Notes: generated by a model from the sequence alone, not told the origin. DNA of 43,501 nt from Clostridia bacterium (GCA_017450885.1 JAFSSR010000011.1:1-43501), one strand, 5' to 3'. Numbered from the stretch's first letter, positions 19,946-43,501 are shown. Numbers and translations: made by a program.

Positions 19946-20021
19946 TGTTTTTCCTTTAAATACAGAAACAAATTAAAGCAACCGCTAAACTGAATAAAGA
20001 CAAAACCTACGCTGTTTTTAA

Positions 20022-20750
20022 CTATTCTTCTTTCGTATCGGTGTTTTCGGATACGCTGTCTTCAACAGAACTCTCCGCGACAGGGTCCGTATTATTGCCT
20101 TTGTTTATCAACCGGTAAAAGACGATCCAGGCGATCGCGATCAGCACCGCAACTATCGACCAGAAATTGCCTGCCGGAAGCTTCCAGACAAAAGGCGTCG
20201 TTTCCCTGAGCAGATTAAGGCCGAAACGTGTAACTCCATATAAGATGAGGAAGACCGGATAGACAAGATCGCGGAAAGCCCCCTTGGCAATGAAGACGAT
20301 CAGAATGAGCATCAGGACTATCGCCACGATCATTTCGACCAACTGACTTGGGAATCTTTTTTCCACTCCATCCGCGCCAACGTGTAAGACCATTCCTTTG
20401 CAGCATCCGGTAGTTAGACATTTTACCTTGTTCAACGCAAGCATAGCGCAGACCGCCGGAGCACAGGCGTCCATAAGCTCACCGTATTTCATCCTGATCA
20501 AGAGTGAAACAAAAATAAAACAAGCAGGAATCAACAATATTGATCCGTAGAATGAGATCCCGCTCCAGCGACCGTTTTCAATATAATATAATAAATATGC
20601 GCCAAAGGTTCCGGATACAGTCAACACAATATTGATAATCGGAATTTTCCAGATAGGAATCTTTATCCATCTTCTGCAAATCACCATTACGATTATCATA
20701 AGCACAGTTCCGATTGCCAGCGGGATGATTCTCTCCAAATTCATAATCAT
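20022..20750 (-). CDS. Divergent prolipoprotein diacylglyceryl transferase (Lgt)-like membrane protein
   Basis: GISFYG, D..AP, CLTTGCCKG, RFPSQLVE, YGVTRF..N.LR align with Lgt motifs; about 7 TM helices. Confidence 0.75.
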   Translation of the reverse strand: MIMNLERIIPLAIGTVLMIIVMVICRRWIKIPIWKIPIINIVLTVSGTFGAYLLYYIENGRWSGISFYGSILLIPACFIFVSLLIRMKYGELMDACAPAVCAMLALNKVKCLTTGCCKGMVLHVGADGVEKRFPSQLVEMIVAIVLMLILIVFIAKGAFRDLVYPVFLILYGVTRFGLNLLRETTPFVWKLPAGNFWSIVAVLIAIAWIVFYRLINKGNNTDPVAESSVEDSVSENTDTKEE

Positions 20751-20819
20751 ATCCTTTCTTTACAGAGTATGCATACTTCTTCCTCTAATGAGGAAGAAGT
20801 ATGCATCAATAGTCCTGAA

Positions 20820-26570: not shown

Positions 26571-26593
26571 CTTGATTTTCCTCCTTATGCACC

Positions 26594-28006: not shown

Positions 28007-28067
28007 GCGCCTTGCTCCTTTCTCCCGGAATTGTATGTCAAAAATCGTTGATGGCGTTATTTGCCCG

Positions 28068-28727
28068 TCAATCCGACGGTATGCCAGTGGCTATCACGGT
28101 AAATGCGCCGGGGGTGTCGAATTCTCCCCAGACCGTGATCTCCACCGGGAACGTGACCGGTGTGCCGCCCGGAAGATCCCAGGTGATCGGCTCGCCGCTC
28201 GTATTGGTAAAGCGATAGATCCAGCCGGGGCCGTAAGCCTCATATATGGAGCTGCCCTCCTGTACCGCCGTGCCGGACGCCGTGAAGACGCCGCCCTCGG
28301 TGTTGAGCTGGATTATCAGATCGTCCGCGCCCGGGATACCGGCCGTGGCGAATATCTCTATATATCCCTTCTGGCTGTACTGTACCGGATGGCCGATCTG
28401 CTTGACGTTTGAAAGCAGCATCTTTATCTGATACACCCCCCGGTCCGCGGAGATCATCGTCCAGTCCCCGGGGGACAAATAATGCTGACCGTCGCCGTCC
28501 GCGACCGGAGCGTGGGTGTAGTCCCCGTTCTCATCCCTGCCGTCGGCAAGAAGATAGATGCTGTCCGGCGCGAAAGCGTATTCCATACTGATCTGCGAGG
28601 CGGAATTGATCCTGGTGCGGTATCTCGCATAGGCGACGCCGCTGGTGACGACCGCCGTTATCAGCACTAACAGTACCGCGGCTGCAATTCTTATCACCGC
28701 TGTGCGGCGTGACGTCTCCTTTCCCAT
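28068..28727 (-). CDS. Small secreted protein with SipW-like signal (AYA|RY)
   Basis: Basic N-region, hydrophobic core, GVAYA|RYRT; beta-rich mature region; starts 1 nt after the upstream stop. Confidence 0.8.
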   Translation of the reverse strand: MGKETSRRTAVIRIAAAVLLVLITAVVTSGVAYARYRTRINSASQISMEYAFAPDSIYLLADGRDENGDYTHAPVADGDGQHYLSPGDWTMISADRGVYQIKMLLSNVKQIGHPVQYSQKGYIEIFATAGIPGADDLIIQLNTEGGVFTASGTAVQEGSSIYEAYGPGWIYRFTNTSGEPITWDLPGGTPVTFPVEITVWGEFDTPGAFTVIATGIPSD

Positions 28728-28728
28728 A

Positions 28729-30828
28729 TCAACCGTTTCCTTCCGTCTCCGCGGGTTCAGTCTCGGCGGGTTCAGTCTCGGCGGGGGTCGGGAGCAGGTC
28801 GTATCTCGATATGCTCTCCGGGATCACCGCAGCGCCGAAGTTGCCGCCGTAGATCGAGAACTCTCCGATCTCGTTCCAGTTGGCGACGCCAAGAGCGCCG
28901 GTATACGTACCGTCATTGATGATTATCTTTCCCTTTCCCGCGCCCTGCTTGCCGACCATTTCGACAGCGTATGAGTGCGCGCTGGAGATGGTGCTGTTGC
29001 CGTCTATCGAGATGGTGGCGTTCCAGTTGTACGCGCCTTCGAGATAGACGCCGTCGCCGGTATCGGTCCATCCGTTGCCGGTAGCCGCCGCGTTGGTATG
29101 CGGTCCCGTACCGGTCACCGTACTGTCAACAATGTTCACAGTACCGCCCTTGACCGCAATCCCGGTGATACCGGTCAGAGTACTGCGGCTGATAAGAGCA
29201 GTAGACCTCTGCTGCGGCTGGAAATATGCGGCGTAATATCCGCTGACCTCGCTGTCGAGGATAACGACATCGGTGCCCCAGCGGTTTGTTGAACCCTGCC
29301 CGCTGATACCGATGTAACCGGTACTGTTAATGCGGCTGTCCTGTATGATGAGCTGCGAGAGCGCCTCGGAGGCGTCGCCGTTGCCCATAAAGAATATGGT
29401 CGGATTTTCCGTTTCGAGGTCGCAGTGATAGATCCTCATTATCGTATCGGAGCCCGTGCCGGCATAGTCCGCGGCGTAGACCGCGGTATCGAAATCGCGG
29501 ATGTTGACGTTGCTGAGCGTCACCTCTCCGCCTATCGACGAAACGCCGATGCTGGAAACGACGCCTTCGCGTCCGCTTCCGTTGCCGTTGCCGACGATAT
29601 CGCCGTTCATAATAGTCAGTTTAGCGCCGTTTCTTGCGACTATAGCGGAATATTCGGATTCCGAGCCGGTATAGGTTATATTGTACCCGTTCAAGTTTAT
29701 GGTAGCTTCATCTCCGTTTATTACCGAAACGGGCATCGAGAGCGAAAGATCGTTCGTAAGCTCGACCACCTCTACGTTTGGATCTCTGATCGCGCTGTAG
29801 AATTCGGTATCGGTTCCGACCGGCTGCGAGCGGGACGGTATATTGACGACCGAAACGTTGAGCGTGGCGGTGATCTGGAGCGGATGCTCTGAGGACGAAA
29901 TAGAGGTATCGTACTCTATCTCCCTTTCGATCTCACCGTACGTCATAAGATAAGCCCAGACGCCGTTGCCGTTTTCGTCTACGGCGACGGGATAGTAATC
30001 GGAAGTCCCCACCGTTACGGCGTCAAGCACGTCGATAGTGCCCTCGTAGCCGTCGGCCGCGGATATCGCGGCGAGATAATCAGCCGTGCTGACGCCTCCG
30101 ACAGAGAGCAGTTTTCCGGTGTTGAGATTTCCGACAAGATCGAATACCGCGTTGTCAAAATCGTACTCGATAGGGCGCAGATACTCGTCAAGCGTAACGC
30201 CCGAGCCGTTTACAGTTCCGCGGAAGTAGTAACCCTCCACGTCGTATACCCATTCCCATTTGATCGGGACGTCGTTATAGTAATCGTCGGACATTATAAG
30301 CTGTCTGCCCGGCAGGATGTCATAGGAAAACGTATTGTCTTCCGTGCTTCCGAGATAGATGCGCGAGACGTTTTCATCATTGATCCTGCGCGAGGTATCT
30401 GCGTAGAAATATATCCTGCGGCGGAGTTCGTTTGCGCTCATAGGCGCCTTGGAGACGGTGAGATATATAGTTATACCGTCTTTAGAAGCGGCGTTGTCGA
30501 CGCTGAGCGGTATTACGCCGGATCTGCCGGGAGCGACAAGGATGGCGGCGTCCGAAACGGTGATGTTTGCGGAATCAAAGCCCCATACCTCGGTGCGGAA
30601 GACCAGCGTGCTTGCCTTGGAGACGTTGGTATACCAGGCGCTGGTCATTGCAAACAGCAGCACGACGACAGCGATAAGCGTACCTATGGCAAGGATAGCC
30701 TGACGGCGCACGAGCTTTTTTACGCGCGCGTAATCGGAGGATTCCGCTTCGGTCAGAGTCTTTCCTTGCTCCGCGTCAATCTTCTTTCCCCTCAGGATAT
30801 TCAGTTTTTCCTTCAGATGCATTAACAC
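28729..30828 (-). CDS. SipW-type secreted protein with C-terminal parallel beta-helix-like domain
   Basis: Signal ...LFAMTSA|WYTN; C-terminal repeats such as LTIMNGDI, VTLSNVNI, LIIQDSRI, VNIVDSTV, IIINDGTY; PAETE x3 tail. Start may be ATG 30822. Confidence 0.8.
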   Translation of the reverse strand: MLMHLKEKLNILRGKKIDAEQGKTLTEAESSDYARVKKLVRRQAILAIGTLIAVVVLLFAMTSAWYTNVSKASTLVFRTEVWGFDSANITVSDAAILVAPGRSGVIPLSVDNAASKDGITIYLTVSKAPMSANELRRRIYFYADTSRRINDENVSRIYLGSTEDNTFSYDILPGRQLIMSDDYYNDVPIKWEWVYDVEGYYFRGTVNGSGVTLDEYLRPIEYDFDNAVFDLVGNLNTGKLLSVGGVSTADYLAAISAADGYEGTIDVLDAVTVGTSDYYPVAVDENGNGVWAYLMTYGEIEREIEYDTSISSSEHPLQITATLNVSVVNIPSRSQPVGTDTEFYSAIRDPNVEVVELTNDLSLSMPVSVINGDEATINLNGYNITYTGSESEYSAIVARNGAKLTIMNGDIVGNGNGSGREGVVSSIGVSSIGGEVTLSNVNIRDFDTAVYAADYAGTGSDTIMRIYHCDLETENPTIFFMGNGDASEALSQLIIQDSRINSTGYIGISGQGSTNRWGTDVVILDSEVSGYYAAYFQPQQRSTALISRSTLTGITGIAVKGGTVNIVDSTVTGTGPHTNAAATGNGWTDTGDGVYLEGAYNWNATISIDGNSTISSAHSYAVEMVGKQGAGKGKIIINDGTYTGALGVANWNEIGEFSIYGGNFGAAVIPESISRYDLLPTPAETEPAETEPAETEGNG
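28744..28788 (-). repeat. 15-nt tandem repeat encoding PAETE x3
   Basis: GTCTCCGCGGGTTCA GTCTCGGCGGGTTCA GTCTCGGCGGG. Confidence 0.75.
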
Positions 30829-31561
30829 GTGAGATCAGTTCCTTCCCAAGTTCCCGTTTTAGTGACTCGTAAATTTCGTCGTAATCGCGTTTTGTAAGGG
30901 TCTTAAATCCCGGAAGCACCATATCGTCCGGGAGCTGTTCCCGCTTGGACAGCTTCTCGATGGCGTCGTCAAGCTCGCCCCTGATGTTCTTGCCCGCGTT
31001 TTGGAGGATCAGCGCGACGATTATCAAGATGGGGATGACTATGATAGCCATAAAGCCTATTTTTCCCGAAACAAAAGATAACACTTTTGTAAACACACCT
31101 TCTTTCCCAGTATACCACGTCACTTTGCCGATGAAGTTAGACTTCTGTACAAAATACGGGTCGGATGAATAGTTTGCGTCACCGCGGCTTTCAAGGTAGA
31201 GTTCACCGTTTTCGTCGTATTGGATCGACGCCACACGGTGGGTAACGATCGCCCCGTAATGGCTCGACTCCCGTGAACGAAAACATATTATATCCCCGAC
31301 CTCTATATCCTCAATATCCGCAGACTTGCAGATCAGCACCGCCCCGGTCGGGATGGTCGGCTCCATGCTTCCGGTCACTACTCGAAAAACGCTGTATCCG
31401 AAAAAGCTGGTATACCCCGTTGCAAGTGTCTGTACCATTACGATAAGACATAGAAGCACGGCTGTGACGAGTATCGTCGTGGAAACTATAACCAAACTTC
31501 GGGAGCTTTTTTTGCGATGTTTTTTATTCTTTCGCGTCTCCGCAGGTTCTTTTTCGATCAT
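30776..31561 (-). CDS. sipW: Signal peptidase I, SipW/ER-type (copy 2)
   Basis: TM, VVTGSMEPTIP (Ser), IVTHRV (His), SRGDAN..DP, second TM, cytoplasmic tail. Start overlaps the upstream stop (TAATG). Confidence 0.9.
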   Translation of the reverse strand: MIEKEPAETRKNKKHRKKSSRSLVIVSTTILVTAVLLCLIVMVQTLATGYTSFFGYSVFRVVTGSMEPTIPTGAVLICKSADIEDIEVGDIICFRSRESSHYGAIVTHRVASIQYDENGELYLESRGDANYSSDPYFVQKSNFIGKVTWYTGKEGVFTKVLSFVSGKIGFMAIIVIPILIIVALILQNAGKNIRGELDDAIEKLSKREQLPDDMVLPGFKTLTKRDYDEIYESLKRELGKELISRVNASEGKTEYPEGKED

Positions 31562-32892
31562 TATTTACTTGCTCCGGCAAGCTCAAGGTTCAGGGCGAAA
31601 TCGGTAACGGCAGAGCTGGTCGAAACGCAGTCGATATCCTGCCCCTCCAGCCATATGAACATCCTTATCCGCTGCGGTACGTTGCGTTCAAGCTCTGTAA
31701 TGACGACGTCGTCGGTCGCGCCGGAAATATCGACGTTTGCCGCAATCCTGGAAGCGGGGACCACTCCGTCCGTCGCGTTGGCGTACAGCGCTTCGGTGCT
31801 GGTAAAGAACTCGCCCGCCGTGATCAGCGAGGTGATATTCCATTGAAGATAATCGTTGTAAAAGCGGGAAGTCGCGTTTTCCGCGGTCAGTCCGCTGACG
31901 CCGCTGACCCCTGCCTGGAATATCTGGTCGATCTTGCGTTCACCGTCGACGGGAGACCATACGTTTTGGGTCTGAACTGTCAGCCGGTCGCTGATATCCG
32001 CCCTTGAGACCCTGCGCATATACCTGTCGTATGCAAGCGGCTCCGTTATTGCGTAGTCGCCCTGATCGAGCCCGGGAGCGACGTGAAGAAGTCCGTTTGG
32101 CTCGTAGATCGTGAATTTGCTTTCGTTTAACAGAATAGAGTTGTCCCCGGCGTTCTGATAGACGCCGAGCATCTTTTTGTATCTGGAATCGTAATCCCCG
32201 CTGCGGGAATAGGCGAGCATATCGCGGCTGCGCGCGGTATCCGTATTGACAAGGAAGCCGACGCGCGCGATAGACGCGATATCCCCTGTGGTACCGGAAA
32301 GCGCGAAGCCGGAGATGGTGCTGTCGTCATTCACAGCGGAAGGAAGCTCCAGAAGCGAACTGCCCTCTCCCGATTTGCGGTCCATGGAAACACGAAGCTC
32401 GTATTCAGAGCCGGGAGATACGACCCAGAAATCGAGATATACGTACTTGCCGCCCTTTTGGGAGTCGGTGACGTTGGCATATTCAAGCGTATTGTCGATG
32501 GTAAAATCGTTTTCGCCCCTGAGTTCCCCGGTAGAGCGATCGTAGGCAGGCATAAGCCAGCTTATTCCGTCGGCGGTGGAAACCGGGGTGATGCCGCAGA
32601 TCTCGCCGAGATAATCGTAGGAATCGTATCTGGAAAAGACAAGGTTGTCGCTGAACGATCCGGGATAATGCAGTGTGACCTCCTCACCGTCGACCTCGAC
32701 CGTCTCCGTGACGTCAGGCGCGAGCAGGATGGTCGTCCCTCCGGAGATCGCCACCTGAGCTCCGCTGACCGAAGGGCTTTTTGAAAGAGTGACCCAGGCG
32801 TAGGATACCGAAACGACCATTGTGACAACGATGACCAGCGTGAAGAAAGCAGCAAGGATCTTCATATAGATCTGCTTCATCCTTATATCCAT
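31561..32892 (-). CDS. SipW-type secreted fibre-subunit paralog
   Basis: Signal ...VVSVSYA|WVTLSKSPSV; YLDFWV, IARVGF, FTIYEPN, IRMFIWLEGQDIDC. Confidence 0.85.
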   Translation of the reverse strand: MDIRMKQIYMKILAAFFTLVIVVTMVVSVSYAWVTLSKSPSVSGAQVAISGGTTILLAPDVTETVEVDGEEVTLHYPGSFSDNLVFSRYDSYDYLGEICGITPVSTADGISWLMPAYDRSTGELRGENDFTIDNTLEYANVTDSQKGGKYVYLDFWVVSPGSEYELRVSMDRKSGEGSSLLELPSAVNDDSTISGFALSGTTGDIASIARVGFLVNTDTARSRDMLAYSRSGDYDSRYKKMLGVYQNAGDNSILLNESKFTIYEPNGLLHVAPGLDQGDYAITEPLAYDRYMRRVSRADISDRLTVQTQNVWSPVDGERKIDQIFQAGVSGVSGLTAENATSRFYNDYLQWNITSLITAGEFFTSTEALYANATDGVVPASRIAANVDISGATDDVVITELERNVPQRIRMFIWLEGQDIDCVSTSSAVTDFALNLELAGASK

Positions 32893-32928: not shown

Positions 32929-34776
32929 TCACCGTCTGCCGGCTTTGCGCGCAAGGCGCTCGCGGCGTCTGCGTTCGCGTTCCTCCTCGGCGCGCTGCCT
33001 CTCCTCATCCAGTCTCCGGCGAGCCTCAAGGCGGTCGGAAAGCTGTCTGGAGAAGACCGTTATCTCGGAGATAACGCCTTCAAGCGACTTTTTGTCCTCT
33101 TCTATCTGGGCGGCAAGAGCGGCAGCCTGACGCTCCTCCTCTTCCCGTTTCAGACGTTCTTCTTCCGCGAGCTTTTCGAGGCGGAGTTTTTCCTCCTCTT
33201 CCCTTGCCTTCTGATCGGCAAGCATACGCTCGCGTTTGAGCCGTTCGCGCTCCTCCTGTCTGCGCAGGCGTTCGCGTTCGGCCTCTTCTCTCTTGCGCTG
33301 TTCTTCTTCCTCTATGACGGCAGCGGCGTCGGCAAAATCGGTAAGCGCCGCTTCCTGCGCCGCCTTGACATCGTCGCGTTTAAGCTGCTGCTCGAACAGC
33401 TTGTTGTTGAAAGCGTTGACCGCCGCCATAAACAGTCCGCTCCTGCGTCTGTCTTCAAGCTCGCGCTCCATACGCTCCTGCATGATGCGTTCGCGCTCCG
33501 CTTCTTTTTCCGCGCGTATGCGTTCGCGCTCGGCGGCTTTCTCCGCGCGGATACGCTCGCGTTCCGCCGCCTTTTCGGCGCGGAGGCGCGCAGCCTCTTC
33601 CTTCTTCTGTCTCTCTCGCTCCTCGACAAGCTTGCGCCGTTCCTCCGCTTCCTGCTTGAGAAGGTCGGATTTGGTGAGTTCCTCGATCAGCACCTTGCGG
33701 ACCTCGACGTCCGGGAGATCGTAATCCTCCGTCAGCTCCTCGATGATCTGCTTTATGAATTTAGGTTTGAGAGCTCTGCGCTTTTCCTTGAGAGGCGTCG
33801 GAACCTTGCGGTCGGCCTCGTCCTGGAGATATCCCTTGAGGATAAGATAGTTGAACAGGATGTTATGATAGATATCCTCCTGCATCCTGTCGTTTATGAC
33901 CGGGCTTTGCTCGACGACCTTGACGGAATATCCTATATCATCGTATTTTCTTAAGAATTCAAACAGCTCAAGTATCTTTTTATAGTCTTTATTTTTCTTT
34001 AAGACGTTGGTCTTGTTGATCTTGCCCTTTACTCTGGGATATTTGCTGAGTTTTTTTGCGTACTCCGTGTTCATCAACACGGTGAGTATGCGATATATCT
34101 TGGAGATGCGGGCGAACACCTCCGCGTTCTTATCGTCGGTGGTCAGCGCGTCGTCGTTCTGCCTGATGTGCAGGAACAGGTCCATATGGACGTGCTCGCT
34201 TGCGCTGTCCATATCGGACTTGACCTTCAGCTTGGCGCCGAACTCCTCGCTCATCGCCTCGAGAAGAGCGTCGTGTCTGATCTTGACAAAGCGGTAGGCG
34301 TACTCCATCGTGGTAAAAACGAGACGATTCTCGTACTGACCTATGGAGTCCTCGCGATAGCGCTGCATCAGCTTTGAAGGACGGATCTTGCCGTTGTCAG
34401 GATCGTAATCCTCAACGAGACTCGCGTGCTGAGCCAGATGGCGCACCGTTTCCGGTCCCGCCTTCTTGGCGTTTGCCACGTTGACGATCAGCTCTTCTTC
34501 CTTAATGACGTTTCTCGGGTTGTCGACTATGTTCTGGAAGGCTTTGAGCGTCTCGTCGATGCCGTCGACCCAGTTGAGGTCGACGATCTTTTGCAGCTTC
34601 CTGTTGGAAAACTGGAACTCGTTGTTCGCCTTGGAAATGGCGTCCATAAAGAACTCGTAGAAATCGGTGCTTCCGATGGCGCGAACGACGCCTTTCACGA
34701 ATTTCTGATATATTGGGTCGATAAGAGAGTTCTGTTCCTCTCCGTCCTGCGCTGTTTTAAGGTCCTTGTCAGCCAT
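32929..34776 (-). CDS. DUF2357 (McrC-like N-terminal domain) protein with long E/R/K-rich helical C-terminus, no recognisable nuclease
   Basis: NPR..I.EEE.IV....AKK...ETVRHLAQH, P.K, YENRLV, N.DYKK..EL..FL; last ~250 aa are almost entirely E/R/K/A/L. Confidence 0.75.
   Translation of the reverse strand: MADKDLKTAQDGEEQNSLIDPIYQKFVKGVVRAIGSTDFYEFFMDAISKANNEFQFSNRKLQKIVDLNWVDGIDETLKAFQNIVDNPRNVIKEEELIVNVANAKKAGPETVRHLAQHASLVEDYDPDNGKIRPSKLMQRYREDSIGQYENRLVFTTMEYAYRFVKIRHDALLEAMSEEFGAKLKVKSDMDSASEHVHMDLFLHIRQNDDALTTDDKNAEVFARISKIYRILTVLMNTEYAKKLSKYPRVKGKINKTNVLKKNKDYKKILELFEFLRKYDDIGYSVKVVEQSPVINDRMQEDIYHNILFNYLILKGYLQDEADRKVPTPLKEKRRALKPKFIKQIIEELTEDYDLPDVEVRKVLIEELTKSDLLKQEAEERRKLVEERERQKKEEAARLRAEKAAERERIRAEKAAERERIRAEKEAERERIMQERMERELEDRRRSGLFMAAVNAFNNKLFEQQLKRDDVKAAQEAALTDFADAAAVIEEEEQRKREEAERERLRRQEERERLKRERMLADQKAREEEEKLRLEKLAEEERLKREEEERQAAALAAQIEEDKKSLEGVISEITVFSRQLSDRLEARRRLDEERQRAEEERERRRRERLARKAGRR
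33481..33590 (-). repeat. 33-nt coding repeat (11-aa ERERIRAEKAA x3)
   Basis: Protein RLRAEKAAERERIRAEKAAERERIRAEKEAERERIM. Confidence 0.75.
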
Positions 34777-34824: not shown

Positions 34825-36420
34825 TCAGTTGTTCTTCTTCAGCAGATCGACATATTCCTTGCATATCGGCATCATATTCTTGCCGAAGGTCTTGTCGAGA
34901 TATGCGTTGAATTTCGTGAGCTCGTCTTTCATAAAGCCCAAGCTCAACGACTCGAACTTACGGAGCACCTTCTTCGCCACGATAAAGTCGATTGCCTGTA
35001 TCTCGGTACCTCCGCAGGCGATAAAGCAGGGAACGAAGTCCTTGAGCTGCTTCATGATACGGTTACCGAAAGCAAGGCGGAAGTTCTTTATCAGATACTT
35101 GTTCATATCTTCAAGGAGATCAAGCATCTCGGCGGAAACGGGGAAATCCTTCTTTGCCTGCGCAAAGAGCTCCTCAAGGTGATCCGTGGTGATATGCACC
35201 GGATCGGTAAGCTCGCAGGTAAAGGCGTCGGCGCGGCTGTCGAGGTCGATCGGGATCGCGCGGTCGTAGACCTTGTCCGCGACGGCAAATGTGGAGTCGT
35301 CGTTGTTTATCGTACCGACGAACCAGATGTTGTCGCTTATCTGGATAGTACCGTTGTTTATAAGCGCGGGGTCGTTGTCCCAGGTAGCGGTGACTATGTC
35401 GATCTTCCACTCCTCTTTACGCGGCATTTCGAGTATGGACAGCATTTCCGCGAAGTAGTACTCGACACGCGCGATGTTCATCTCGTCGAGAATGACAAAG
35501 TGCGGGTCGCGGTAGAAGTTGCCCTCGTAGATGGCGCGTAGGAAGTCGGTCTCCATATACTTCCTGGTAAACTCGTTGTAGTAGCCGTAAAGCTCGGTAC
35601 GTTCACGCCAGGACGGCTGGACCGAGCAAAGCGTGGTGTCTATGCCGACGAACCGTCCGAAGGCGTACGCAAGCGAGGTCTTACCGGTACCGGATATACC
35701 CTGAAGTATCAGTATGCGCGCCGCGCCCATCGAGGCGACGTAATAGCGCATCATATCGATATCGTAATAGAGCTTGAGTTGTGAAGCCGCGTACTTTCTG
35801 AATCTCTCGCAGAACTCGGAAAGCGTGATCTCGTTGTCGTAGACCGGCGGCTGATATTCCGTCTTGTAGTAGTTGTCGACGGTGGTCAGGCGGAAGAAAC
35901 GGCTGTCCTCCGGATTGACGCAGGGAGACTGCATCGTATTGCGGTTGGCGTTGGGGACAAAGCTGTCGCCTTCTTCCTCTCCGTCCTCCCCTTCGTTCTC
36001 CGAACCGTCCTTGAGCTCGTCCTCAAGCTGGTCCTGAGGGATGCCCAGCTCGGCGACCTTCATCTGAAGGAGCTTGTCTTTTTCGTAGTTGGCGCGGAGC
36101 AGATCGCGCTGCAAATTCTTGACCTGCTTTGCCAGCTCGTCGTATTTCTTTACCGAAACACGGAACCGAAGCAGCTTTTTAAGCAGCTTGAAGACAAGCC
36201 AAATGACCACGAGAGCGACTGCTATCAGCACGACCTCGGTGATGATGAGGAACACCCACTCGAGAGTTGAAAAGTCGGGGGCGTACTCGCGGATGAGGTT
36301 AAGTCTCTCCGGGAAGTTGAACAGCATCTTGAAAAAGTTGAAAATACCTACGAAGATATTCCAGAATGCCTTTCCAAGCTCGCCGAGATCAGCCGCGAGA
36401 TATTTCAAAAAGTTACCCAT
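34825..36420 (-). CDS. McrB-like AAA+ NTPase with N-terminal membrane anchor and coiled coil
   Basis: Walker A GISGTGKTS, VQPSW....L.GYYN, Walker B ILDEMNIARVEYYFA, GTINNDDST, DKVYDRA, FGNRI. N-terminal TM (WVFLIITEVVLIAVALVVIWLVF). Confidence 0.88.
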   Translation of the reverse strand: MGNFLKYLAADLGELGKAFWNIFVGIFNFFKMLFNFPERLNLIREYAPDFSTLEWVFLIITEVVLIAVALVVIWLVFKLLKKLLRFRVSVKKYDELAKQVKNLQRDLLRANYEKDKLLQMKVAELGIPQDQLEDELKDGSENEGEDGEEEGDSFVPNANRNTMQSPCVNPEDSRFFRLTTVDNYYKTEYQPPVYDNEITLSEFCERFRKYAASQLKLYYDIDMMRYYVASMGAARILILQGISGTGKTSLAYAFGRFVGIDTTLCSVQPSWRERTELYGYYNEFTRKYMETDFLRAIYEGNFYRDPHFVILDEMNIARVEYYFAEMLSILEMPRKEEWKIDIVTATWDNDPALINNGTIQISDNIWFVGTINNDDSTFAVADKVYDRAIPIDLDSRADAFTCELTDPVHITTDHLEELFAQAKKDFPVSAEMLDLLEDMNKYLIKNFRLAFGNRIMKQLKDFVPCFIACGGTEIQAIDFIVAKKVLRKFESLSLGFMKDELTKFNAYLDKTFGKNMMPICKEYVDLLKKNN

Positions 36421-36456: not shown

Positions 36457-37431
36457 TTACTCTGCCTTAGGGGCGTCTTCGCCGTTTTCGGTGGGAGCTT
36501 CTGCGGGCTCCTCGTTCTTCTGTGCGGCAAGCTCCGCCATTATCTTGGCGCGAAGTTCAGCTTCCATCTTTTCACGCTCTGCGGCAGCTTTTGCGGCTTC
36601 CTCCGCGGCGATCTCCTCGGCGGACTTTTCCGCGGGAGCGTTGCTTTCAAGCAACTCCTTCTTCAGGCGTTCGCGCAGTTCGGATTCCAGCTTTTCGCGT
36701 TCCGCCTTTTTGGTCTCCTCGAACTTCTGCTTCTCCTCGTCAAGCATATCCTCTGCGGTGCCGCGCTCCTGCTCGTAGCGGAGACGGTTCTTGACGTTCT
36801 GGTACTCGAAGAGCACGCGGAAGAACTGAACGAGGTGGAAGAGGAAGAATATTGCTACCGGGATAACGACTACAACAAGGAATCCGGTAGAGGTCTGCAG
36901 GAAATCGAACACCTTGCCGGCGCCCTTGATCCTGGTTCCGCCTACGTCCTTGTCGCCTTCTTTGGTAGAGTAAAGACCGACGACCTCTGACTCGTGAACG
37001 GTCAGCGGGTCCTCGTTGGTGTTGTTATCACCCTTTGTGGCAAAGATGAGATAGTTTCCGCCGTCGTAGATCTGGAAAATTCTGTGCGTATTAAGAACAC
37101 GCTCGCCGTCGATGACGGTCCAGTAGGTGATGATATCGCCGACCTTGAGAGTCTTGGTGTCCTTAACGGCCTTATCTATAATGAGGTCGCCGGGTTCAAG
37201 GGTCGGATACATTGATTCGGTCTGGATACTGAGTATCGAGCGTCCGAAGATGCTGGGTACTCCGTTGCCTGACGTGCTGACGAAAGAGACGTAGGTTGCG
37301 ACCGCAGCGATGATTATCGCGATGACAAGAATCACGTTGATAATAATGTTGGCGATCTTTTTGCCCTTCTTGACCTCTTTTTCGGGTGCGTTGTCTTCAG
37401 GAACGTTTGTCTGGTCGTATTTCTTTTTCAT
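36457..37431 (-). CDS. sipW: Signal peptidase I, SipW/ER-type (copy 1) with long charged cytoplasmic tail
   Basis: TM, IQTESMYPTL (Ser), NTHRI (His), TKGDNN..EDP, second TM, ~115-aa E/K/A-rich tail. Start MKKKY at 37431 (AGGAG RBS). Confidence 0.9.
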   Translation of the reverse strand: MKKKYDQTNVPEDNAPEKEVKKGKKIANIIINVILVIAIIIAAVATYVSFVSTSGNGVPSIFGRSILSIQTESMYPTLEPGDLIIDKAVKDTKTLKVGDIITYWTVIDGERVLNTHRIFQIYDGGNYLIFATKGDNNTNEDPLTVHESEVVGLYSTKEGDKDVGGTRIKGAGKVFDFLQTSTGFLVVVVIPVAIFFLFHLVQFFRVLFEYQNVKNRLRYEQERGTAEDMLDEEKQKFEETKKAEREKLESELRERLKKELLESNAPAEKSAEEIAAEEAAKAAAEREKMEAELRAKIMAELAAQKNEEPAEAPTENGEDAPKAE

Positions 37432-37500
37432 GAAATATCTCCTTCCTATGATTAACAAACCTAAAAGATATTTATAAATTACGGAATGATCCGTTTATTT

Positions 37501-38493
37501 TCAGGGTATGTCGTCCATACCGGACTGACCGGAGTAGTCGACGTGGAACTGTATGCTTGCCAGGATCTCAGCCTTGTCGATGCGCGAAATGCAGTCGACG
37601 TCCTGACCTTCGAGCCAGATATAAAGCTCTATCTTGACCTTTCCTCCCGATTCGAGCGGGAAGAGCTCCTTGTTGGAAACGAATCTGCCCAGGTCCTTGA
37701 TCGTCACCCCGCGCTGAACGGGATCGGCCTCGGTCCAGGTGGACCTCTCCTGCAGGATCAGGTGATCCGCGTTGATAAGCGTCTCGGAACCGTCGATGCT
37801 GGGGGTAGGCGTGTATCCGGCCTCACCGCTTTCATGCCCGTTACAGTTGGGCTCATAGATAAAGAACTCGGGGATGCCTCTCGGCTGACCGGACTCCGCG
37901 TCGACCGGGGTGATGCGGAAACCGAGACGTATGGCGGTCTCCGCTCCGGCGCCTCCGTCGGAGTGGATTATCCTTTGCGGATCCCAGACCGGAGTGCCTA
38001 TGACGTAGGTCCCGGCGCCGTTCTCGCCCTCGTTGACCTCGACTGCCTCGGCGAGCGAGACCTTGCAGGGAGAAAAACTCCTTGCGTAGAAGGTCCCCAC
38101 GACGTAGTACCCGTCACCGTCCTGACGATTGGCGTTGCGCTCGTCGGTCAGCTCGATCCAGTTGCCGGTCGAGCGGCCGTCAAAGCCGTACTGGATGGTG
38201 ACAAGGCTCTGTCTGGCGTTCGACCATGTGGCAGGCTTCAGCGGATAATCCTCGCTTACCATATCAAGGAAGTCGAGCCTCTGTCCCCACTCCTCGTCCG
38301 GAGCGTCGTATGCCAGCGCAAGCTCCAGTCCGGAGTCGGCGTTGACGTAGAGCGCCATATCGTTGACGTGCGGCGTCTGCGACAACGCGAACCACGTATA
38401 GGTTGCGGCTACCAGCAAAACCGACAGGGCGATAAGGATCCACAAATATATAAAAGTTCTCTTTTTCCGGTTTCTTTCGGCGTCTTTTTTCAA
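37501..38493 (-). CDS. SipW-type secreted fibre-subunit paralog
   Basis: TTG start at 38493 with GAGG RBS; ...LVAATYT|WFALSQTPHV, GLELAL, LKPATW, YGFDGR, AIRLGF, FFIYEPN, IWLEGQDVDC. Confidence 0.85.
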   Translation of the reverse strand: MKKDAERNRKKRTFIYLWILIALSVLLVAATYTWFALSQTPHVNDMALYVNADSGLELALAYDAPDEEWGQRLDFLDMVSEDYPLKPATWSNARQSLVTIQYGFDGRSTGNWIELTDERNANRQDGDGYYVVGTFYARSFSPCKVSLAEAVEVNEGENGAGTYVIGTPVWDPQRIIHSDGGAGAETAIRLGFRITPVDAESGQPRGIPEFFIYEPNCNGHESGEAGYTPTPSIDGSETLINADHLILQERSTWTEADPVQRGVTIKDLGRFVSNKELFPLESGGKVKIELYIWLEGQDVDCISRIDKAEILASIQFHVDYSGQSGMDDIP

Positions 38494-38555
38494 AATTGAT
38501 TTCCTCACAAAAATGCGCGCGGGTGTCTTTTCCGAAGAGGTCCGTGTTGCAGGAC

Positions 38556-38700
38556 TCAGCTGCGTACGCAAGCGCGAGGGGTCGCGGTTGTGTACGCGGA
38601 TCGGTCCTGCGGACCGACCACAAACGCCGCTTCGGCTATCCCCCATCCGAAGCGACGTTGCGTCGGCTGTCCCACACTCCCCGGGGGAGGGGAGTGTGGC
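38556..38700 (-). other. Highly structured intergenic region (consecutive stem-loops)
   Basis: Minus strand CCACACTCCC/GGGAGTGTGG; CCGAC..CGTCGCTTCGG/CCGAAGCGGCG..GTCGG; a third hairpin GCAGGAC..GCGTAC/GTACGC..GTCCTGC extends to about 38548. Confidence 0.6.
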
Positions 38701-38742: not shown

Positions 38743-41214
38743 TTAGCTGAGAAGATCTGCAAGTGTTCCGCCAGCATTCACGAAAGCGCCGGCAAGCGCT
38801 GTGAGCTCAGTCTTGTAGTTTTTATCAGCAACTTCAGTTACCTCATTTGCAGTATTAACTGCGCTAATAAGGTTAGTCTGAGCCTCGGTCTTGTTTTCAG
38901 CTGCAACTGCAGTTGTATAAGTGCTGCTGCTTGTAACCTTACCGAGAGCAGTTGTGAACTGTGCGAAGGTCACATTGTCCGGAATAGTGGGAGTGTTCTG
39001 GTTCTGGTTACCAGACTCGCTTACTTCTCTCATACTTCTGACGTCCATAGGCTTAAGTTCGGCACTGCTCTTGAACTGGATATTGAGCTTACCGGACATT
39101 GAAGTCTTAGCGTTAGCGACCATAGTATTGTCAACATAATCGCCATCAAGGTAAACAAGAGCGGATACCTTCTTTGCCTTGTTCTGCTGAAGGGCGCAGA
39201 GAGTGTTGTCGGCAACTGTCTGATCGTTTTCGTCGGTAGTAGTCTTCTTGGTAGTGAGAGTTACCGAGTACTCTTTGTTTGCAACGATCTCAGTAACAGT
39301 AGAATTGAACAGAACGAGCTTAGCCTTGACGGTATCTTCGCCTATCACGGAAACAGTATCGCCGGCAGTAACGGTGCGTGCTCCGGAAACATCGTCAGTT
39401 CCGACCTTAATGTCAGGAGCTGCAACGCCGAGCACCTCGTATCCGGAATTGTCATTATTAGGCGAGACAAATACAACTCGAACGGCGCTCATCAAAGCCT
39501 TAACGTCTTCAAGGCTGAAGAGATCGACATCGGCAGTCGAGAACTGCAGATAGCTTCCGCCGCCCTGAGTGCTTTCATTATCGAAATTCTCTTCATCGTA
39601 AACACGCTGTGAACCGTCGACGTCAAGCAGCAGGTTGGAACCGGCAGCATTGGTGCGAACACCGAAGTCGATGATATATCCGTAAGGATCGTCCACCGTA
39701 AGGGTACCGCCGGAAACAGGGTCGCCCGCGGCGCCTTCTCTGGAAGCGCTGGTAACGTAAGCTACAGTAGGACCGTCTTCGCCGACCTTTGTTACTTCGT
39801 GAGTTTCCTCGTCTTCTACGGTCGGAGCAACGTACCCGATGACCTTGGTGACCATCGTTGCAGGCAGATCTTCGACAGCAATGCCGTTGAACTCAGCCGT
39901 AAGAGTCAAGCCGGACGCGGTGTAATCTCCGACGAGGGCAGCGATATCGGCATATATACCGGAGCCGGGATTCATCTCAACAACGATCTGATTCTGTGCA
40001 ATGAGGTTAGAAGCAACAGTTCCTACGTCAGCGGTGCCAGGATTTCTGACTCCGTTGACAGTCAGATATTCCTTATCAAGAAGATCTCCGACGCCGGATG
40101 TTTCGGCTTGACTATACGTACTGCCGACGGTCAAGCTACCTATTCCATCCTGAGCGTTTGAGAACGCGGTCTTGAGGGCGTTATACTCTTCAATAGCTTT
40201 GTGGATCGCGGGAGTCGCTGTTGCGTCGATAGTTACGCCGAGTTCGCCAGAAAGACTGTTATCGGTGATCGTAGTCAGACCATCGACATTTTCGATCAAA
40301 GTCCGAACATCGGTATCAGTAAGCTCCGCGCTATTGGCGCTGCTCAACGCATAGGCGAGAGCGACCGACTTTATCGCGTTGCCGATAGAGTTGATCGATT
40401 TACCGAGATTAGTGATAACAGCATTCAGTGCGTTGACATCTTCTTGAGTTAACGCATAATTCGGATCCTGTACGGAAGCAAGGACCATGTTGGCCAGCTG
40501 TTGACCGTTGTCAACCAGCGATTTCTGCGCATAAGTCTTTGCGGAGTTAATATAGGTTATAACCCCGGCAGTCGCCGATCTGTAACTGGAAACACGGAAA
40601 GTAACTCCGGACGAAACGCCGACTACACGGACGCCGCCAAAATACTCGTTATCGCCAATAGCTTTGAAAGCGCTACCGTCATACTTACCGACTGTGGTAG
40701 CCTTCTGGACGTTGATGACACGTCCGTCGGAACCATAGTTGGGAGCAAGAAGCAGGGTGTTCAGTCCACCCGTGATTCCGACGTCAGAATTCTCATTGCC
40801 GGAAGCAAGGGTACCCGCACCGGAAAGATTCATAGCGGCAGGGTTGAGGATCATATTCTTGAGTCCGTATGAAAGATCGCTGAGGTCTACAAGGTTACCC
40901 CATGTCTCATTGGACTCTTTAACGTCCTTTCCCTCTTTGGCCATAGAATCGCCGATATCGGATAAAATACCAAGGTTGTCGGTAGTATCCATAAAGGACC
41001 TATTATTGAGCAGCGCTATTTCAAGGTTGCCGTTAGCACCAATATTGGTGGTGATACCGGTGACCTCGGGAGCGGTCGACAGCGTGAACCACGCGTAAGT
41101 CGAGCCGACCATCATGATCGCTGCGATCAGAAGCATGCACAGTGCGGCGGCAAACTTTTTACGGATGTCTTTAGGCATCTGAATTTTGCGCCGGCTGTTT
41201 GCGGTGTTTGTCAT
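38743..41214 (-). CDS. SipW-type secreted protein, 823 aa (candidate major fibre subunit)
   Basis: ...MMVGSTYA|WFTLSTAPEV, NGNLEIAL, TWGNLVDLSD, YGSDGR, DFGVRTN, AVRVVF, VYLDG, LNIQF; AAAGGAG RBS. Confidence 0.88.
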   Translation of the reverse strand: MTNTANSRRKIQMPKDIRKKFAAALCMLLIAAIMMVGSTYAWFTLSTAPEVTGITTNIGANGNLEIALLNNRSFMDTTDNLGILSDIGDSMAKEGKDVKESNETWGNLVDLSDLSYGLKNMILNPAAMNLSGAGTLASGNENSDVGITGGLNTLLLAPNYGSDGRVINVQKATTVGKYDGSAFKAIGDNEYFGGVRVVGVSSGVTFRVSSYRSATAGVITYINSAKTYAQKSLVDNGQQLANMVLASVQDPNYALTQEDVNALNAVITNLGKSINSIGNAIKSVALAYALSSANSAELTDTDVRTLIENVDGLTTITDNSLSGELGVTIDATATPAIHKAIEEYNALKTAFSNAQDGIGSLTVGSTYSQAETSGVGDLLDKEYLTVNGVRNPGTADVGTVASNLIAQNQIVVEMNPGSGIYADIAALVGDYTASGLTLTAEFNGIAVEDLPATMVTKVIGYVAPTVEDEETHEVTKVGEDGPTVAYVTSASREGAAGDPVSGGTLTVDDPYGYIIDFGVRTNAAGSNLLLDVDGSQRVYDEENFDNESTQGGGSYLQFSTADVDLFSLEDVKALMSAVRVVFVSPNNDNSGYEVLGVAAPDIKVGTDDVSGARTVTAGDTVSVIGEDTVKAKLVLFNSTVTEIVANKEYSVTLTTKKTTTDENDQTVADNTLCALQQNKAKKVSALVYLDGDYVDNTMVANAKTSMSGKLNIQFKSSAELKPMDVRSMREVSESGNQNQNTPTIPDNVTFAQFTTALGKVTSSSTYTTAVAAENKTEAQTNLISAVNTANEVTEVADKNYKTELTALAGAFVNAGGTLADLLS

Positions 41215-41299: not shown

Positions 41300-42871
41300 T
41301 TACGGATTGACACTATCGTGTGCAGCAGTGACCGCTTCATTAAGCTGAGCGATCAAAGCACCGAGCTGCTCGGAAGAATACTCGTCATACCCGTTTGCAG
41401 AAAGCCCGTCTCTGATCGTTTCATAAAGAGTAATAAGGGCTGTCTGCTCCTGCGTAGGAGTTTCGGCTGCTGTTGCGGTGTTGTATTCCGATTCCGCATC
41501 ACCGTAGGCTGTTGCGAGTTCACTTACCGTATAGGTATGAGGAGTCGGAGTCGGCTCAGGCGTGTTGTTCTCAGTCACAGCGGCTGGAGGATTTTCCTTC
41601 AGATCGGTATTCTGAGCCGGAACGAGGGTGATGTCAGTAGCGAACTGGAGGTTAAAGACCGCTTTGTCAAGCACGTCGTTGGAAACCGCCATGTTTGCGT
41701 TGGTGACCGCCTCGCCGTCAAGCCAAACGATCGCACTGATCTGATAGGAGGTGTTCTTCGCCATCGAGTCGAGGATGACCGTGGAATTGGTAGGATTGCC
41801 GGAATAGTCACAGAGATAAAGATCACCTGTACTAAGGTTGGCACGCGCGTATGAAAGAACTCTCGCATTTCCAACGTTCTGGGCATTGCCGAGATTCTGA
41901 ACAAACGCGACCCTGATCGCTTTCAGGTACTGAGAAGCAACGTTCTGGTCATCGCCTTCAACGTTTTCACCCTGGTCGTTCTTGAACCAAAGATTGCTGC
42001 CGTTTCCACGTGTGATATCCGAGCTGCTGTCGGTATAAACACGCTGCGCATCCTCTACCTGAAGAAGAAGCTTTCCGTTGGATACGGTATCTTCCGACTT
42101 GTTCACCGCATTGAGACGGAGCGCCAGGTCGATCACATAACCGTAGGTCTCGCCATCTTCATCCACTATCACACGTACGCCGTATCCGGTTCCGGTGTAT
42201 TCGCCGCTTTCGGAATTATAGGACTTAAGATCGGTGTTAATGAGATCGACAATTCGTCCGTCGAAGCCAAATTCGGGAACCGAGAAGATGTGTTCCCCAA
42301 GGGCTCCGGTGGGAACCTGAGTAATTACCTTCTTTGCATCATCAATAGTATAGAATTCTTCGCTATTGGCTTTTTGAATGTAATTACCTTCGTTGTCCTG
42401 AATGGGGTCGCCATCTGCGTTTACGTAAGAGGTATAGGCTGAAGCGCCTTCTCCCACTGTAACTGTAACGAACGCTTCGTTATTTGCCATGACGGCATTC
42501 AGTTTTGCGGGTTTAAGCCAAACGTCTTCAAGTCCGTATGCCGCATCATTGAGGTTTACGATGTTTCCCCACGTGATGTTAGCATCAGCAGGCAACTTGG
42601 TCCCTCCTGCGTACGTACCCGAATCGCCACGTCCGGATTCAATATCACTAAACAATCCGGTTGAGGGCATAAGGGCAATCTCAAGACTTCCGTTGCCTAC
42701 CACCGACGTATCAATACCGCGTACTTCGGGCGCCGTGGAGAGTGTGAACCACGCGTAAGTCGAAGTGACCAGCATGACAGTGGAGATCAGCAACATGACG
42801 AGTGCCGCGGAAAGACGACGCTTAATGGAAACGGTGCTCTTTTCTTTCCGCTTTGTTGTGGAATTTGCCAT
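41300..42871 (-). CDS. SipW-type secreted protein, 523 aa (fibre-subunit paralog)
   Basis: ...MLVTSTYA|WFTLSTAPEV, NGSLEIAL, TWGNIVNLND, FGFDGR, DLALRLN, AIRVAF, VWLDG, FNLQF. Confidence 0.88.
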   Translation of the reverse strand: MANSTTKRKEKSTVSIKRRLSAALVMLLISTVMLVTSTYAWFTLSTAPEVRGIDTSVVGNGSLEIALMPSTGLFSDIESGRGDSGTYAGGTKLPADANITWGNIVNLNDAAYGLEDVWLKPAKLNAVMANNEAFVTVTVGEGASAYTSYVNADGDPIQDNEGNYIQKANSEEFYTIDDAKKVITQVPTGALGEHIFSVPEFGFDGRIVDLINTDLKSYNSESGEYTGTGYGVRVIVDEDGETYGYVIDLALRLNAVNKSEDTVSNGKLLLQVEDAQRVYTDSSSDITRGNGSNLWFKNDQGENVEGDDQNVASQYLKAIRVAFVQNLGNAQNVGNARVLSYARANLSTGDLYLCDYSGNPTNSTVILDSMAKNTSYQISAIVWLDGEAVTNANMAVSNDVLDKAVFNLQFATDITLVPAQNTDLKENPPAAVTENNTPEPTPTPHTYTVSELATAYGDAESEYNTATAAETPTQEQTALITLYETIRDGLSANGYDEYSSEQLGALIAQLNEAVTAAHDSVNP

Positions 42872-42997: not shown

Positions 42998-43501
42998 TCA
43001 TCCTGTCGTCTGAGCCTCGCTTCTCTTAAGACGGAATGTCATCATAGTGCCCAGGTGTCCGCCTATCTTGGAGTTGTCGGTGTCGACGTCGTCTCCTTCA
43101 AGCCAGAGCACCACGGTGTACTTATGCACCTCCTTCTGTTTGACCTGCGTCTGTCCGCCCTGCGCTATCAGCGTGGGCGAGATGAACTTGTCAGGTACTA
43201 TGCGGTAGTAGGTCACGCCGTTTGCCGAACGGACGACCTCAAACTGGTCGCTGTCGGGGGCAAGCTGCATGATCGGCAGATCTATGTATCCACGGGTGTC
43301 GTCGTCCTTGGGGGGCAGCGCCTCCGCCTCGCCCGTAGTTGAGTTGGCGTGAGCGTAGAAGCGCATCTTGCCGTCCTCAAAAAGCATCACCCAGGCGGCT
43401 GTCGAAAGGTTAAGGCTTTCGGAAGTGAGCTCAAGATCCCACTCGTAGTCGACTATGCTTTCGCCCTCGTTGCGGATGTAGTAGGTGTAAGCGAAGTACT
43501 C
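42998..43501 (-). CDS. Fibre-subunit-like paralog, C-terminal part (5'-truncated by window)
   Basis: Frame open to the window edge (EYFAYTYYIRNEGES...AAWVMLFEDG...); YTVVLWLEGDDVDT matches the WLEGxDxD motif of the cluster proteins. Confidence 0.8.
   Translation of the reverse strand, partial: EYFAYTYYIRNEGESIVDYEWDLELTSESLNLSTAAWVMLFEDGKMRFYAHANSTTGEAEALPPKDDDTRGYIDLPIMQLAPDSDQFEVVRSANGVTYYRIVPDKFISPTLIAQGGQTQVKQKEVHKYTVVLWLEGDDVDTDNSKIGGHLGTMMTFRLKRSEAQTTG

Follow-up and report, generated by a model that had tools for sequence, protein, structure and literature searches.

McrBC is the textbook GTP-driven restriction motor. Here we analyse a McrB-like GTPase gene, its McrC-like partner and the cluster of secreted-protein genes that surrounds them on a 43,501-nucleotide (nt) stretch of DNA from a Clostridia bacterium (GCA_017450885.1, JAFSSR010000011.1:1-43501), the whole of which is referred to as the window. 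Bell et al. (2024, eLife 13:RP94800; PMC11090510) report a placement of this GTPase clade inside McrB, and define the NxD branch by its NxD motif, with E or D usually next. One paragraph of that paper, which defers the topic to a later paper, names CoCoPALM systems. As described in that paragraph, an NxD GTPase is fused to an FtsB-like transmembrane (TM) and coiled-coil domain, a signal-peptidase-family gene adjoins, and coiled coils occur on both the McrB and McrC homologues; the systems are read as linked to pilus assembly. Also described in the paper are CoCoNuTs, which are stated to be always paired with HEPN or other nucleases. In a literature search, the name CoCoPALM turned up in no paper besides the eLife article and its preprint. 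Searches on McrB with signal peptidase or SipW found nothing further relevant, and a search for PDC-M26, the candidate defence family discussed below, found no paper.

By its predicted features, the module in the window is a member of the already-named CoCoPALM class, because all four class features are present: an NxD GTPase, a TM segment with a coiled coil, an adjacent peptidase gene, and coiled coils on both homologues (amino acids (aa) 90-124 of the GTPase and aa 371-615 of the McrC-like protein). The sequence-only reading from which this analysis started thus overstated the novelty of the locus, since the same architecture and interpretation are outlined in the CoCoPALM paragraph (PMC11090510). 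The module resembles E. coli McrBC (6hz4, 6ut6) in its Walker A and B motifs, the DE-x-N-x-A-R/N extension, the sensor-1 N..D, the Arg cluster and the McrC N-domain partner. It differs in that the GTPase is membrane-anchored and has no N-terminal DNA-binding domain, and in that the partner is without a PD-(D/E)xK nuclease; overall sequence similarity to E. coli McrBC is marginal (E 0.0016 with a single sequence, 1.3e-5 with a profile). The closest relatives of the GTPase domain are CoCoNuT and PDC-M26 proteins, which share the GT-A-N-x-D-D motif and coiled coils, but are soluble, have N-terminal regions of about 400-500 aa and fall in separate clades of the tree. Unlike in CoCoNuTs, no nuclease family was found in the cluster proteins by Pfam, NCBIfam or PADLOC, and only the A component of the PADLOC system PDC-M26 is matched (E 7.7e-43). 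As in B. subtilis TasA/TapA and the C. perfringens sipW-bsaABC operon (PMC11580942), a SipW-type peptidase gene adjoins genes for secreted subunits with special signal peptides. The secreted proteins here are far larger than those of sipW-tasA/bsa operons (381-1916 aa) and belong to no Pfam or NCBIfam family.

The architecture, the motifs, the loss of the nuclease and the conserved synteny are established in this analysis. On balance we consider it probable that the locus encodes a CoCoPALM-type membrane-tethered GTPase module that is coupled to SipW-dependent fibre assembly and is not a restriction enzyme. The sequence-only reading had proposed a membrane-tethered motor repurposed for protein handling or fibre assembly. 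Its architecture and a conserved tie to sipW and to secreted proteins are borne out; the role itself, which we infer from these features, is rather likely.

The coordinates first given for the GTPase gene are correct, and the gene lies on the minus strand. A plus-strand gene at 34825-36420 was ruled out, the frame being full of stops. A GAGG Shine-Dalgarno sequence is located 6-9 nt 5' of the ATG. The features of the gene are as follows.

34825..36420, minus strand: McrB-like NxD GTPase gene, 531 aa, ATG start
36274..36417, minus strand: two conserved amphipathic/hydrophobic helices, aa 2-49 (from AlphaFold2, conservation and hydrophobic moment)
36169..36267, minus strand: TM helix followed by a K/R-rich stop-transfer stretch (KLLKKLLRFRVSVKK), aa 52-84
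36049..36153, minus strand: short helix with a coiled-coil heptad pattern and conserved LQRDLLRANYEKDKLL, aa 90-124
35953..36045, minus strand: acidic, length-variable, disordered linker, aa 126-156 (predicted local distance difference test (pLDDT) score < 50, gapped in the alignment)
34828..35832, minus strand: AAA+ GTPase core and helical lid, aa 197-531 (fold matches over aa 180-519; McrB alignment over aa 201-389)
35677..35700, minus strand: Walker A, GISGTGKT, aa 241-248 (G241, G244, G246, K247 and T248 invariant, 27/27)
35467..35487, minus strand: Walker B / McrB-type DEMNIAR, aa 312-318 (D312, N315 and R318 invariant, 27/27)
35290..35316, minus strand: GTINNDDST, aa 369-377, with the N372-x-D374 signature followed by D375 (from the alignment)
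35257..35274, minus strand: KVYDRA, aa 383-388 (R387 invariant, 27/27; aligned with the E. coli McrB Arg cluster)

We aligned 27 members of the GTPase family, with identities down to 32%, and used this alignment for an AlphaFold2 model (mean pLDDT 79.5). The N-terminal 196 aa are made up of helices, a TM segment, a coiled coil and an acidic linker, as the sequence-only reading had it. The first two helices (aa 2-33 and aa 36-49 in the model) have hydrophobic moments of 0.43-0.48 and are joined at a near-invariant N-F-P turn (aa 35-37). The region aa 52-84 is modelled as one helix, with a hydropathy peak at aa 58-76 (Kyte-Doolittle 19-residue mean 2.99), and a TM segment is present in every family member (27/27, each with a Kyte-Doolittle value of at least 2.46). 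Topology was judged from hydropathy and charge. The GTPase side is predicted to be cytoplasmic, with the conserved 50-residue N-tail outside or interfacial, because the median K+R count among the 27 members is 1 in the 15 residues that precede the TM segment and 5 in the 15 that follow. In its best heptad register, the helix at aa 90-124 is hydrophobic at 8 of 12 a/d positions, and the linker contains 11 D+E within aa 131-150. A DNA-reader domain was claimed to be missing, and a Pfam scan of the N-terminal 170 aa indeed gave no match at E <= 0.01 and no DNA-binding family.

The FtsB likeness of the TM and coiled-coil domain, for which Bell et al. give an HHpred E of 1.2, is a poor fit to this protein, because the coiled coil is predicted to be cytoplasmic here. 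The topology implied by the charges is thus opposite to that of FtsB, and no DivIC/FtsB family is listed for aa 1-170 up to E 10 in Pfam.

All of the motifs named for the GTPase domain occur in the translation, with key residues invariant. The Walker B motif reads ILDEMNIAR (aa 310-318), and its DEMNIAR pairs with DEINRAN of E. coli McrB in an alignment that runs without gaps across Walker B, the N..D signature and the Arg cluster. Signature residues G369, T370, N372 and D374 are invariant in 27/27 members. Among the 150 best representatives at 50% identity the signature takes the form GT[AI]NxD, usually with a second D next. A single-sequence search of the PDB, taken up to E 1, gave three E. 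coli McrB chains (E 0.0016-0.0037) and no other match. With the family profile, the same three chains were matched at E 1.3e-5 to 3e-5, the E-values of all other AAA+ proteins were 0.1 or higher, and the 10 matches up to E 1 included no MoxR, MCM or dynein chain. The likeness is more than chance. The only solved structures matched by sequence are McrB. Pfam recognized AAA_5 only, below its cutoff (E 0.002; 18.6 versus 22 bits), and PADLOC assigned the protein to the candidate defence family PDC-M26A (E 7.7e-43). At least 119 other protein clusters (at the 90% identity level) have at least 68% identity over the GTPase length.

A tree was built from 135 GTPase domains of the 50%-identity set, CoCoNuT-like GTPases included; 16 rows were left out as fragments or for want of a Walker A match. 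Forms with one or two TM segments make up one clade (SH-aLRT support 98) of 37 rows, 36 of which are such forms and one of which has more TM segments. Separate from it are a multi-TM clade (SH-aLRT 99) and several clades of soluble forms whose N-termini are long. The multi-TM form accounts for 42 of the 135 representatives (at least 3 predicted TM segments, N-terminal regions of about 230-545 aa), and the passages of PMC11090510 on these GTPases make no mention of it.

Directly downstream of the GTPase gene is the gene for the partner, a protein with the DUF2357 domain that the sequence-only reading had expected.

32929-34776, minus strand: McrC-like gene, 615 aa, directly downstream of the GTPase gene with a 48-nt gap
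33667..34776, minus strand: McrC-like N-terminal domain, aa 1-370, DUF2357 (Pfam)
32932..33666, minus strand: ER/K-rich 245-aa C-terminal helix, aa 371-615, standing where the nuclease would be

DUF2357 is matched at E 1.3e-5 by the whole protein and at E 7.1e-7 by aa 1-380, and by all 17 aligned homologues (17/17; best E 1.7e-12). When the AlphaFold2 model was compared with 48,161 chains in VIA-align, McrC chains ranked first (6hz4_M; Z 9.0, root-mean-square deviation (rmsd) 3.0 Å over 102 aa) and second (6ut5_G; Z 8.7). Foldseek gave no match to this model at E <= 0.001, sequence and profile searches of the PDB with the protein found nothing, and no PADLOC model matches it. The C-terminal helix consists of 53% E+R+K and contains zero proline. 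A similar tail occurs in 18/18 orthologues (64-76% E/R/K/A/Q) and in two divergent loci (L020 and L021). No PD-(D/E)xK motif was found among the invariant columns of the 18 orthologues, in which the only invariant acidic residues are D66, E149 and E178. Judged from these alignments, the McrC nuclease is gone and the GTPase-activating N-domain is kept, because the ER/K tail is present in 18/18 orthologues and the invariant columns hold no PD-(D/E)xK motif. According to PMC11090510, it is the N-terminal part of McrC that activates the GTPase in E. coli. Tail length varies, with full-length orthologues of 527 to 661 aa. Within the tail, a 33-nt tandem repeat (33484-33588; 3.2 copies, 77% matches) encodes an 11-residue unit.

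Two signal peptidase genes flank the pair, one of them directly upstream of the GTPase gene.

36457..37458, minus strand: sipW-like signal peptidase 1, probable ATG start at 37431 (TIGR02228, E 6.5e-24)
30776..31561, minus strand: sipW-like signal peptidase 2 (TIGR02228, E 3.2e-27; Ser/His/Asp kept)

Both peptidases score above the curated cutoff for archaeal/SipW-type signal peptidase I (TIGR02228) and below that of the Bacillus SipW equivalog model (82-94 versus 190 bits). Residues S82, H125 and D150 are invariant in 7/7 aligned SipW copies, and on this basis both copies look active. SipA is an inactive chaperone. The peptidases here differ from the SipA-like chaperone of the CoCoPALM description in being of SipW type with Ser/His/Asp retained. 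SipW1 has a second TM segment and then a conserved cytoplasmic tail (36457-36850 in the window), in which the juxtamembrane motif FFRVLFEYQNVKN is nearly invariant and the charged helix EAELREKLKAE is conserved. The tail motif appears unusual among signal peptidases and is a candidate docking site.

The arrangement of these genes is conserved. We compiled a close set of 19 loci from metagenome-assembled genomes of rumen and gut Clostridia, in which the GTPase is 62-80% identical. The position claimed for the GTPase gene, directly after the first sipW copy, is confirmed in the window, where the gap is 36 nt, and sipW1 and the 381-aa gene lie upstream of the GTPase gene in 18/18 close loci with visible upstream DNA. 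Where the downstream DNA can be seen, the McrC-like gene comes after the GTPase gene in 18/18 close loci. In 17/18 it is followed by the 443-aa gene, sipW2 and the 699-aa gene; L001 is the locus without all three. Three divergent relatives (43-47% identity), one of which is the second copy in the same genome described below, keep the order sipW-GTPase-McrC-sipW. To look more widely, we ran the family profile against 400 genomes sampled evenly from the class; kin among the resulting loci are not independent. Any match, counting all GTPase types, was found in 25/400 genomes, and 12 full-length loci from 8 genera were recovered. In all of these a DUF2357 gene is downstream (12/12) and sipW is within 1.5 kb of the GTPase gene (12/12). 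It is directly upstream in 11/12; in the remaining locus (L036) sipW is downstream.

Compared with the window, the GTPase and SipW1 each have a median identity of 68% and the McrC N-domain has one of 67%; the values for the secreted proteins are 32-49%. This pattern fits a machine with variable exposed cargo, because the cytoplasmic parts are best conserved and the secreted proteins least. The pair is read here as a functional part of a SipW-dependent surface-protein locus, because its reader and nuclease are lost, because it has no clear defence partner and because, in the loci examined, it is never found apart from sipW.

Neither phage nor plasmid records hold a full-length relative: 50,697 phage records gave 2 partial matches, and 72,556 plasmid records gave 285 matches to the GTPase domain only. 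A second copy of the core is present in the same genome on a short contig (L020 = G000:C115:1-6395; 47% identical). This copy has genes for the GTPase, for a McrC-like protein whose K/E/A-rich tail measures 259 aa, for SipW and for an adhesin-like counterpart of the 699-aa protein (Pectate_lyase_5, E 6.9e-8). A sister clade consists of McrB-like GTPases that are also membrane-anchored but shorter (418-464 aa) and have DUF2357 partners. In three sister clade loci (L039-L041) no sipW occurs within 1.5 kb of the GTPase gene. In L055 (G209:C80, 9145-18092) and L056 (G259:C8, 7495-19147), large transglutaminase-like (Transglut_core, TgpA_N) surface proteins follow instead, and in L055 one DUF2357 gene is placed between two GTPase genes.

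Genes that may act on cyclic di-GMP (c-di-GMP) are linked to the cluster. A gene with HD_5 and EAL domains is found upstream of the cluster in 13/14 close loci with enough upstream DNA, and EAL-type (c-di-GMP phosphodiesterase-type) genes also occur in two divergent loci (L021 and L022).

L006, 1241-2719: HD_5+EAL or EAL gene
L009, 1745-3220: HD_5+EAL or EAL gene
L021, 14335-15144: HD_5+EAL or EAL gene
L022, 5504-7792: HD_5+EAL or EAL gene

When the window's own assembly was searched for HD_5+EAL, no more than a weak HD match came up (E 1.3e-7); the expected position lies beyond the contig end at 43501. Also encoded in the window is a GGDEF gene (10994-12157, plus strand), which lies some 23 kb away from the GTPase gene and about 9 kb beyond the cluster's far end.

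The cluster genes are co-oriented and tightly packed, with gaps of 36-48 nt around the GTPase/McrC-like pair. On the minus strand the order is the fragment, 523-aa, 823-aa and 381-aa genes, sipW1, the GTPase gene, the McrC-like gene, the 443-aa gene, sipW2, the 699-aa, 219-aa, 470-aa and 1916-aa genes, and then genes for a Lgt-like protein and a BspA-type leucine-rich repeat (LRR) protein. The neighbours of the core are listed here.

42998..43501, minus strand: C-terminal 167 aa of a further cluster protein with a WLEGDDVD end, cut by the contig end (homologue in 13/19 loci)
41300..42871, minus strand: 523-aa secreted protein with the shared N-terminal motif
38743..41214, minus strand: 823-aa secreted protein with the shared N-terminal motif (STYAWFTLS)
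37501..38646, minus strand: 381-aa secreted protein, distantly paralogous to the 443-aa protein (E 1e-6 across the last 70 aa)
31561..32892, minus strand: 443-aa secreted protein that shares the signal-anchor motif and carries a WLEGQDIDC motif in its C-terminal part
28729..30828, minus strand: 699-aa protein anchored in the membrane, weakly matching a pectate-lyase-like adhesive domain (PF20585 below its cutoff, E 0.0014)
20820..28727, minus strand: 219-aa, 470-aa and 1916-aa secreted proteins at the cluster end
17984..20750, minus strand: 242-aa Lgt-like membrane protein and 653-aa surface protein with BspA-type LRRs, found in synteny in some of the relatives (L001, L004)

Six aligned neighbours have a common anchor motif, (S/A)T(Y/F)(A/T)W(F/I/V)(T/A)LS..P.V ... 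GSLEIAL, in which W41, S45 and V50 are invariant, and a seventh, the 219-aa protein, has a looser version. In the 381-aa open reading frame (ORF) about 60 Arg/Ser/Pro-rich residues precede the signal anchor, and the true start is probably internal, near KKDAERNRKKR. The best ESM Atlas cluster of the 523-aa protein is 50% viral (Uroviricota, with phylum known for 4 members only), and the cargo proteins may have prophage-borne relatives. No nuclease, VWA or defence family was identified in the cluster proteins by Pfam, NCBIfam or PADLOC, other than PDC-M26A on the GTPase and a marginal PD-T4-6 match on SipW1 (E 0.0029). Specifically, no VWA family was found in the 15 cluster proteins scanned. 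A scan of the cluster for promoters and terminators showed no clear operon boundary. The GC profile shows no compositional island at the GTPase gene (0.52-0.55 versus 0.55 in the flank); GC is 0.45-0.49 over 18001-26000, which holds the LRR, Lgt-like and 1916-aa genes, and 0.52-0.58 elsewhere. One relative only (L009) has a 110-aa GIY-YIG ORF within the cluster (4664-4996), and the equivalent place in the window is without it.

These observations suggest how the module might work. The GTPase would be held at the inner face of the membrane by its one TM segment, with a coiled-coil stalk of roughly 35 residues and a flexible acidic linker. There it would form a McrB-like ring, plugged by the McrC-like N-domain, under the membrane beside SipW. 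The TM segment and N-tail, together with charged helices (the GTPase stalk, the McrC-like tail and the SipW1 tail), may bring the GTPase next to SipW. GTP turnover could then gate or drive cleavage of the signal anchor by SipW, and hydrolysis would be coupled to ordered polymerisation or release of TasA-like fibre or adhesin subunits. The whole process may be under c-di-GMP control.

Several points weigh against coupling to fibre assembly. The closest relatives of the GTPase domain are candidate defence proteins (PDC-M26A and CoCoNuTs). Distribution is patchy, as it is for accessory or defence genes (12/41 relatives and the 25/400 class genomes, all GTPase types). The best fold match to the GTPase model in VIA-align is a MoxR-type structure, 2r44 (Z 15.9, rmsd 4.4 Å over 280 aa), and RavA (Z 14.2) and MCM (Z about 14) also score above McrB (Z 13.4, rmsd 3.1 Å over 181 aa, 17% identity). 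The model of the McrC-like protein is poor (pLDDT 61.3), and its McrC matches are followed by unrelated helical proteins at Z 8.3, a gap of less than 1 Z unit. Pfam and NCBIfam gave no family at useful E-values for eight or nine secreted neighbours, and the Peptidase_M73 model no match. The nearest named ESM Atlas cluster is Peptidase_M73 (0.84 for the 443-aa and 0.81 for the 523-aa protein); other clusters are unnamed, and these are leads only. Presumably the N-terminal motif of these proteins (TYAWFT ... GSLEIAL) resembles the signature of SipW-cognate TasA/camelysin proteins. A search of RNA runs for a 4.5-kb stretch listed no run. To our knowledge, SipW/TasA-type fibres, as formed by B. 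subtilis, need no cytoplasmic NTPase. The C. perfringens Bsa operon, in the account given of it in PMC11580942, is without an NTPase.

Four other explanations were considered. The pair could be an envelope-linked defence or abortive-infection module. It would detect phage either at the membrane or at the surface fibre, which is a likely receptor, and set off an effector other than the McrC nuclease. The PDC-M26A match (E 7.7e-43), the position of CoCoNuTs, which are treated as predicted defence systems in PMC11090510, as sister branches of this GTPase, the patchy distribution and the second, 47%-identical copy in the same genome all favour this, but the conserved cluster has no nuclease or other known effector by Pfam, NCBIfam or PADLOC, the McrC-like partner has no PADLOC match, and no neighbouring gene is a defence gene save for the marginal PD-T4-6 match (E 0.0029) on SipW1. 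No full-length copy occurs among the phage and plasmid records searched. The pair is also a poor fit to a freely shuffling defence cassette, because it is the most conserved part of the cluster and is always accompanied by sipW (in 18 + 12 loci). We consider a defence function unlikely. Similarly doubtful is a nucleotide-dependent switch or checkpoint, and not a motor, through which c-di-GMP or cell state would control either the activity of SipW or the transcription of the cluster, with no mechanical work on the subunits. The EAL/HD-GYP genes linked to the cluster and the conserved cytoplasmic tail on SipW1 are consistent with a switch. B. subtilis SipW is reported to have a second, regulatory role via its C-terminus, which also speaks for it. 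However, all catalytic AAA+ motifs are invariant, including the Arg finger position, which points to real turnover, and family scans found no DNA-binding or c-di-GMP-binding domain in either the GTPase or the McrC-like protein.

An AAA+ chaperone of the MoxR type that matures a partner, in the manner of RavA/ViaA or NorQ/NorD, would make the likeness to McrB superficial. MoxR ATPases (RavA, NorQ, CHU_0153) share the AAA+ clade fold and give the highest structural scores (Z 15.9 for 2r44 and 14.2 for RavA versus 13.4 for McrB), and a Foldseek search with the full GTPase model placed McrB 30th in a list made up of generic AAA+ chains (MCM, dynein, MoxR). In the models compared, AAA+ families of the McrB/MoxR clade are not separated by structure. 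Sequence and profile searches of the PDB, in contrast, gave McrB and no MoxR chain, identity in the VIA-align rows is highest to McrB (17-18% versus 11-14% for MoxR-type), the McrB-type N-x-D signature is present, and the partner is DUF2357/McrC-like, with no VWA protein in the cluster. Placement on the McrB rather than the MoxR side, as first proposed, is thus supported by sequence and partner type, while fold scores run the other way, and a MoxR-type chaperone is very improbable. Least credible is an ordinary type IV (McrBC) restriction system that lies in a surface-protein locus by chance. The Walker A and B and McrB-type motifs and the adjoining DUF2357 gene are as expected of one, but the N-terminus is a TM segment and coiled coil and not a DNA reader, 18/18 McrC-like orthologues have no PD-(D/E)xK domain or motif, and synteny with sipW is fixed. 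The canonical restriction reading was rejected, with DNA reader and nuclease both missing.

A more specific form of the preferred reading, a membrane-tethered GTPase coupled to SipW-dependent fibre assembly, is a possibility that we offer tentatively. In an unrecognised Gram-positive fibre machine, an exapted McrBC would replace the energy-free self-assembly of the TasA type. The GTPase ring, with a nuclease-less McrC, would dock on the SipW tail, and GTP would time or drive anchor cleavage and the ordered addition of very large subunits, with the ER/K helix of roughly 35 nm as a spacer or ruler. If so, sister clades (multi-TM, or with TgpA-like-transglutaminase neighbours) would be further membrane machines with the same motor.

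In summary, a large McrB clade is without its DNA-facing parts, is membrane-anchored and is fixed inside a surface-protein operon. Relative to the published outline of CoCoPALM, the features that appear to be new here are the ER/K helix in place of the nuclease, the two catalytically intact-looking SipW copies, the SipW1 tail, the shared cargo motif, the EAL linkage, the second copy and the synteny counts. If coupling to fibre assembly is correct, Clostridia that are abundant in the rumen and gut would have turned a defence motor to the biogenesis of their cell surface, and fibre assembly of the SipW/TasA type, so far regarded as free of any NTP-dependent step, would have gained one.

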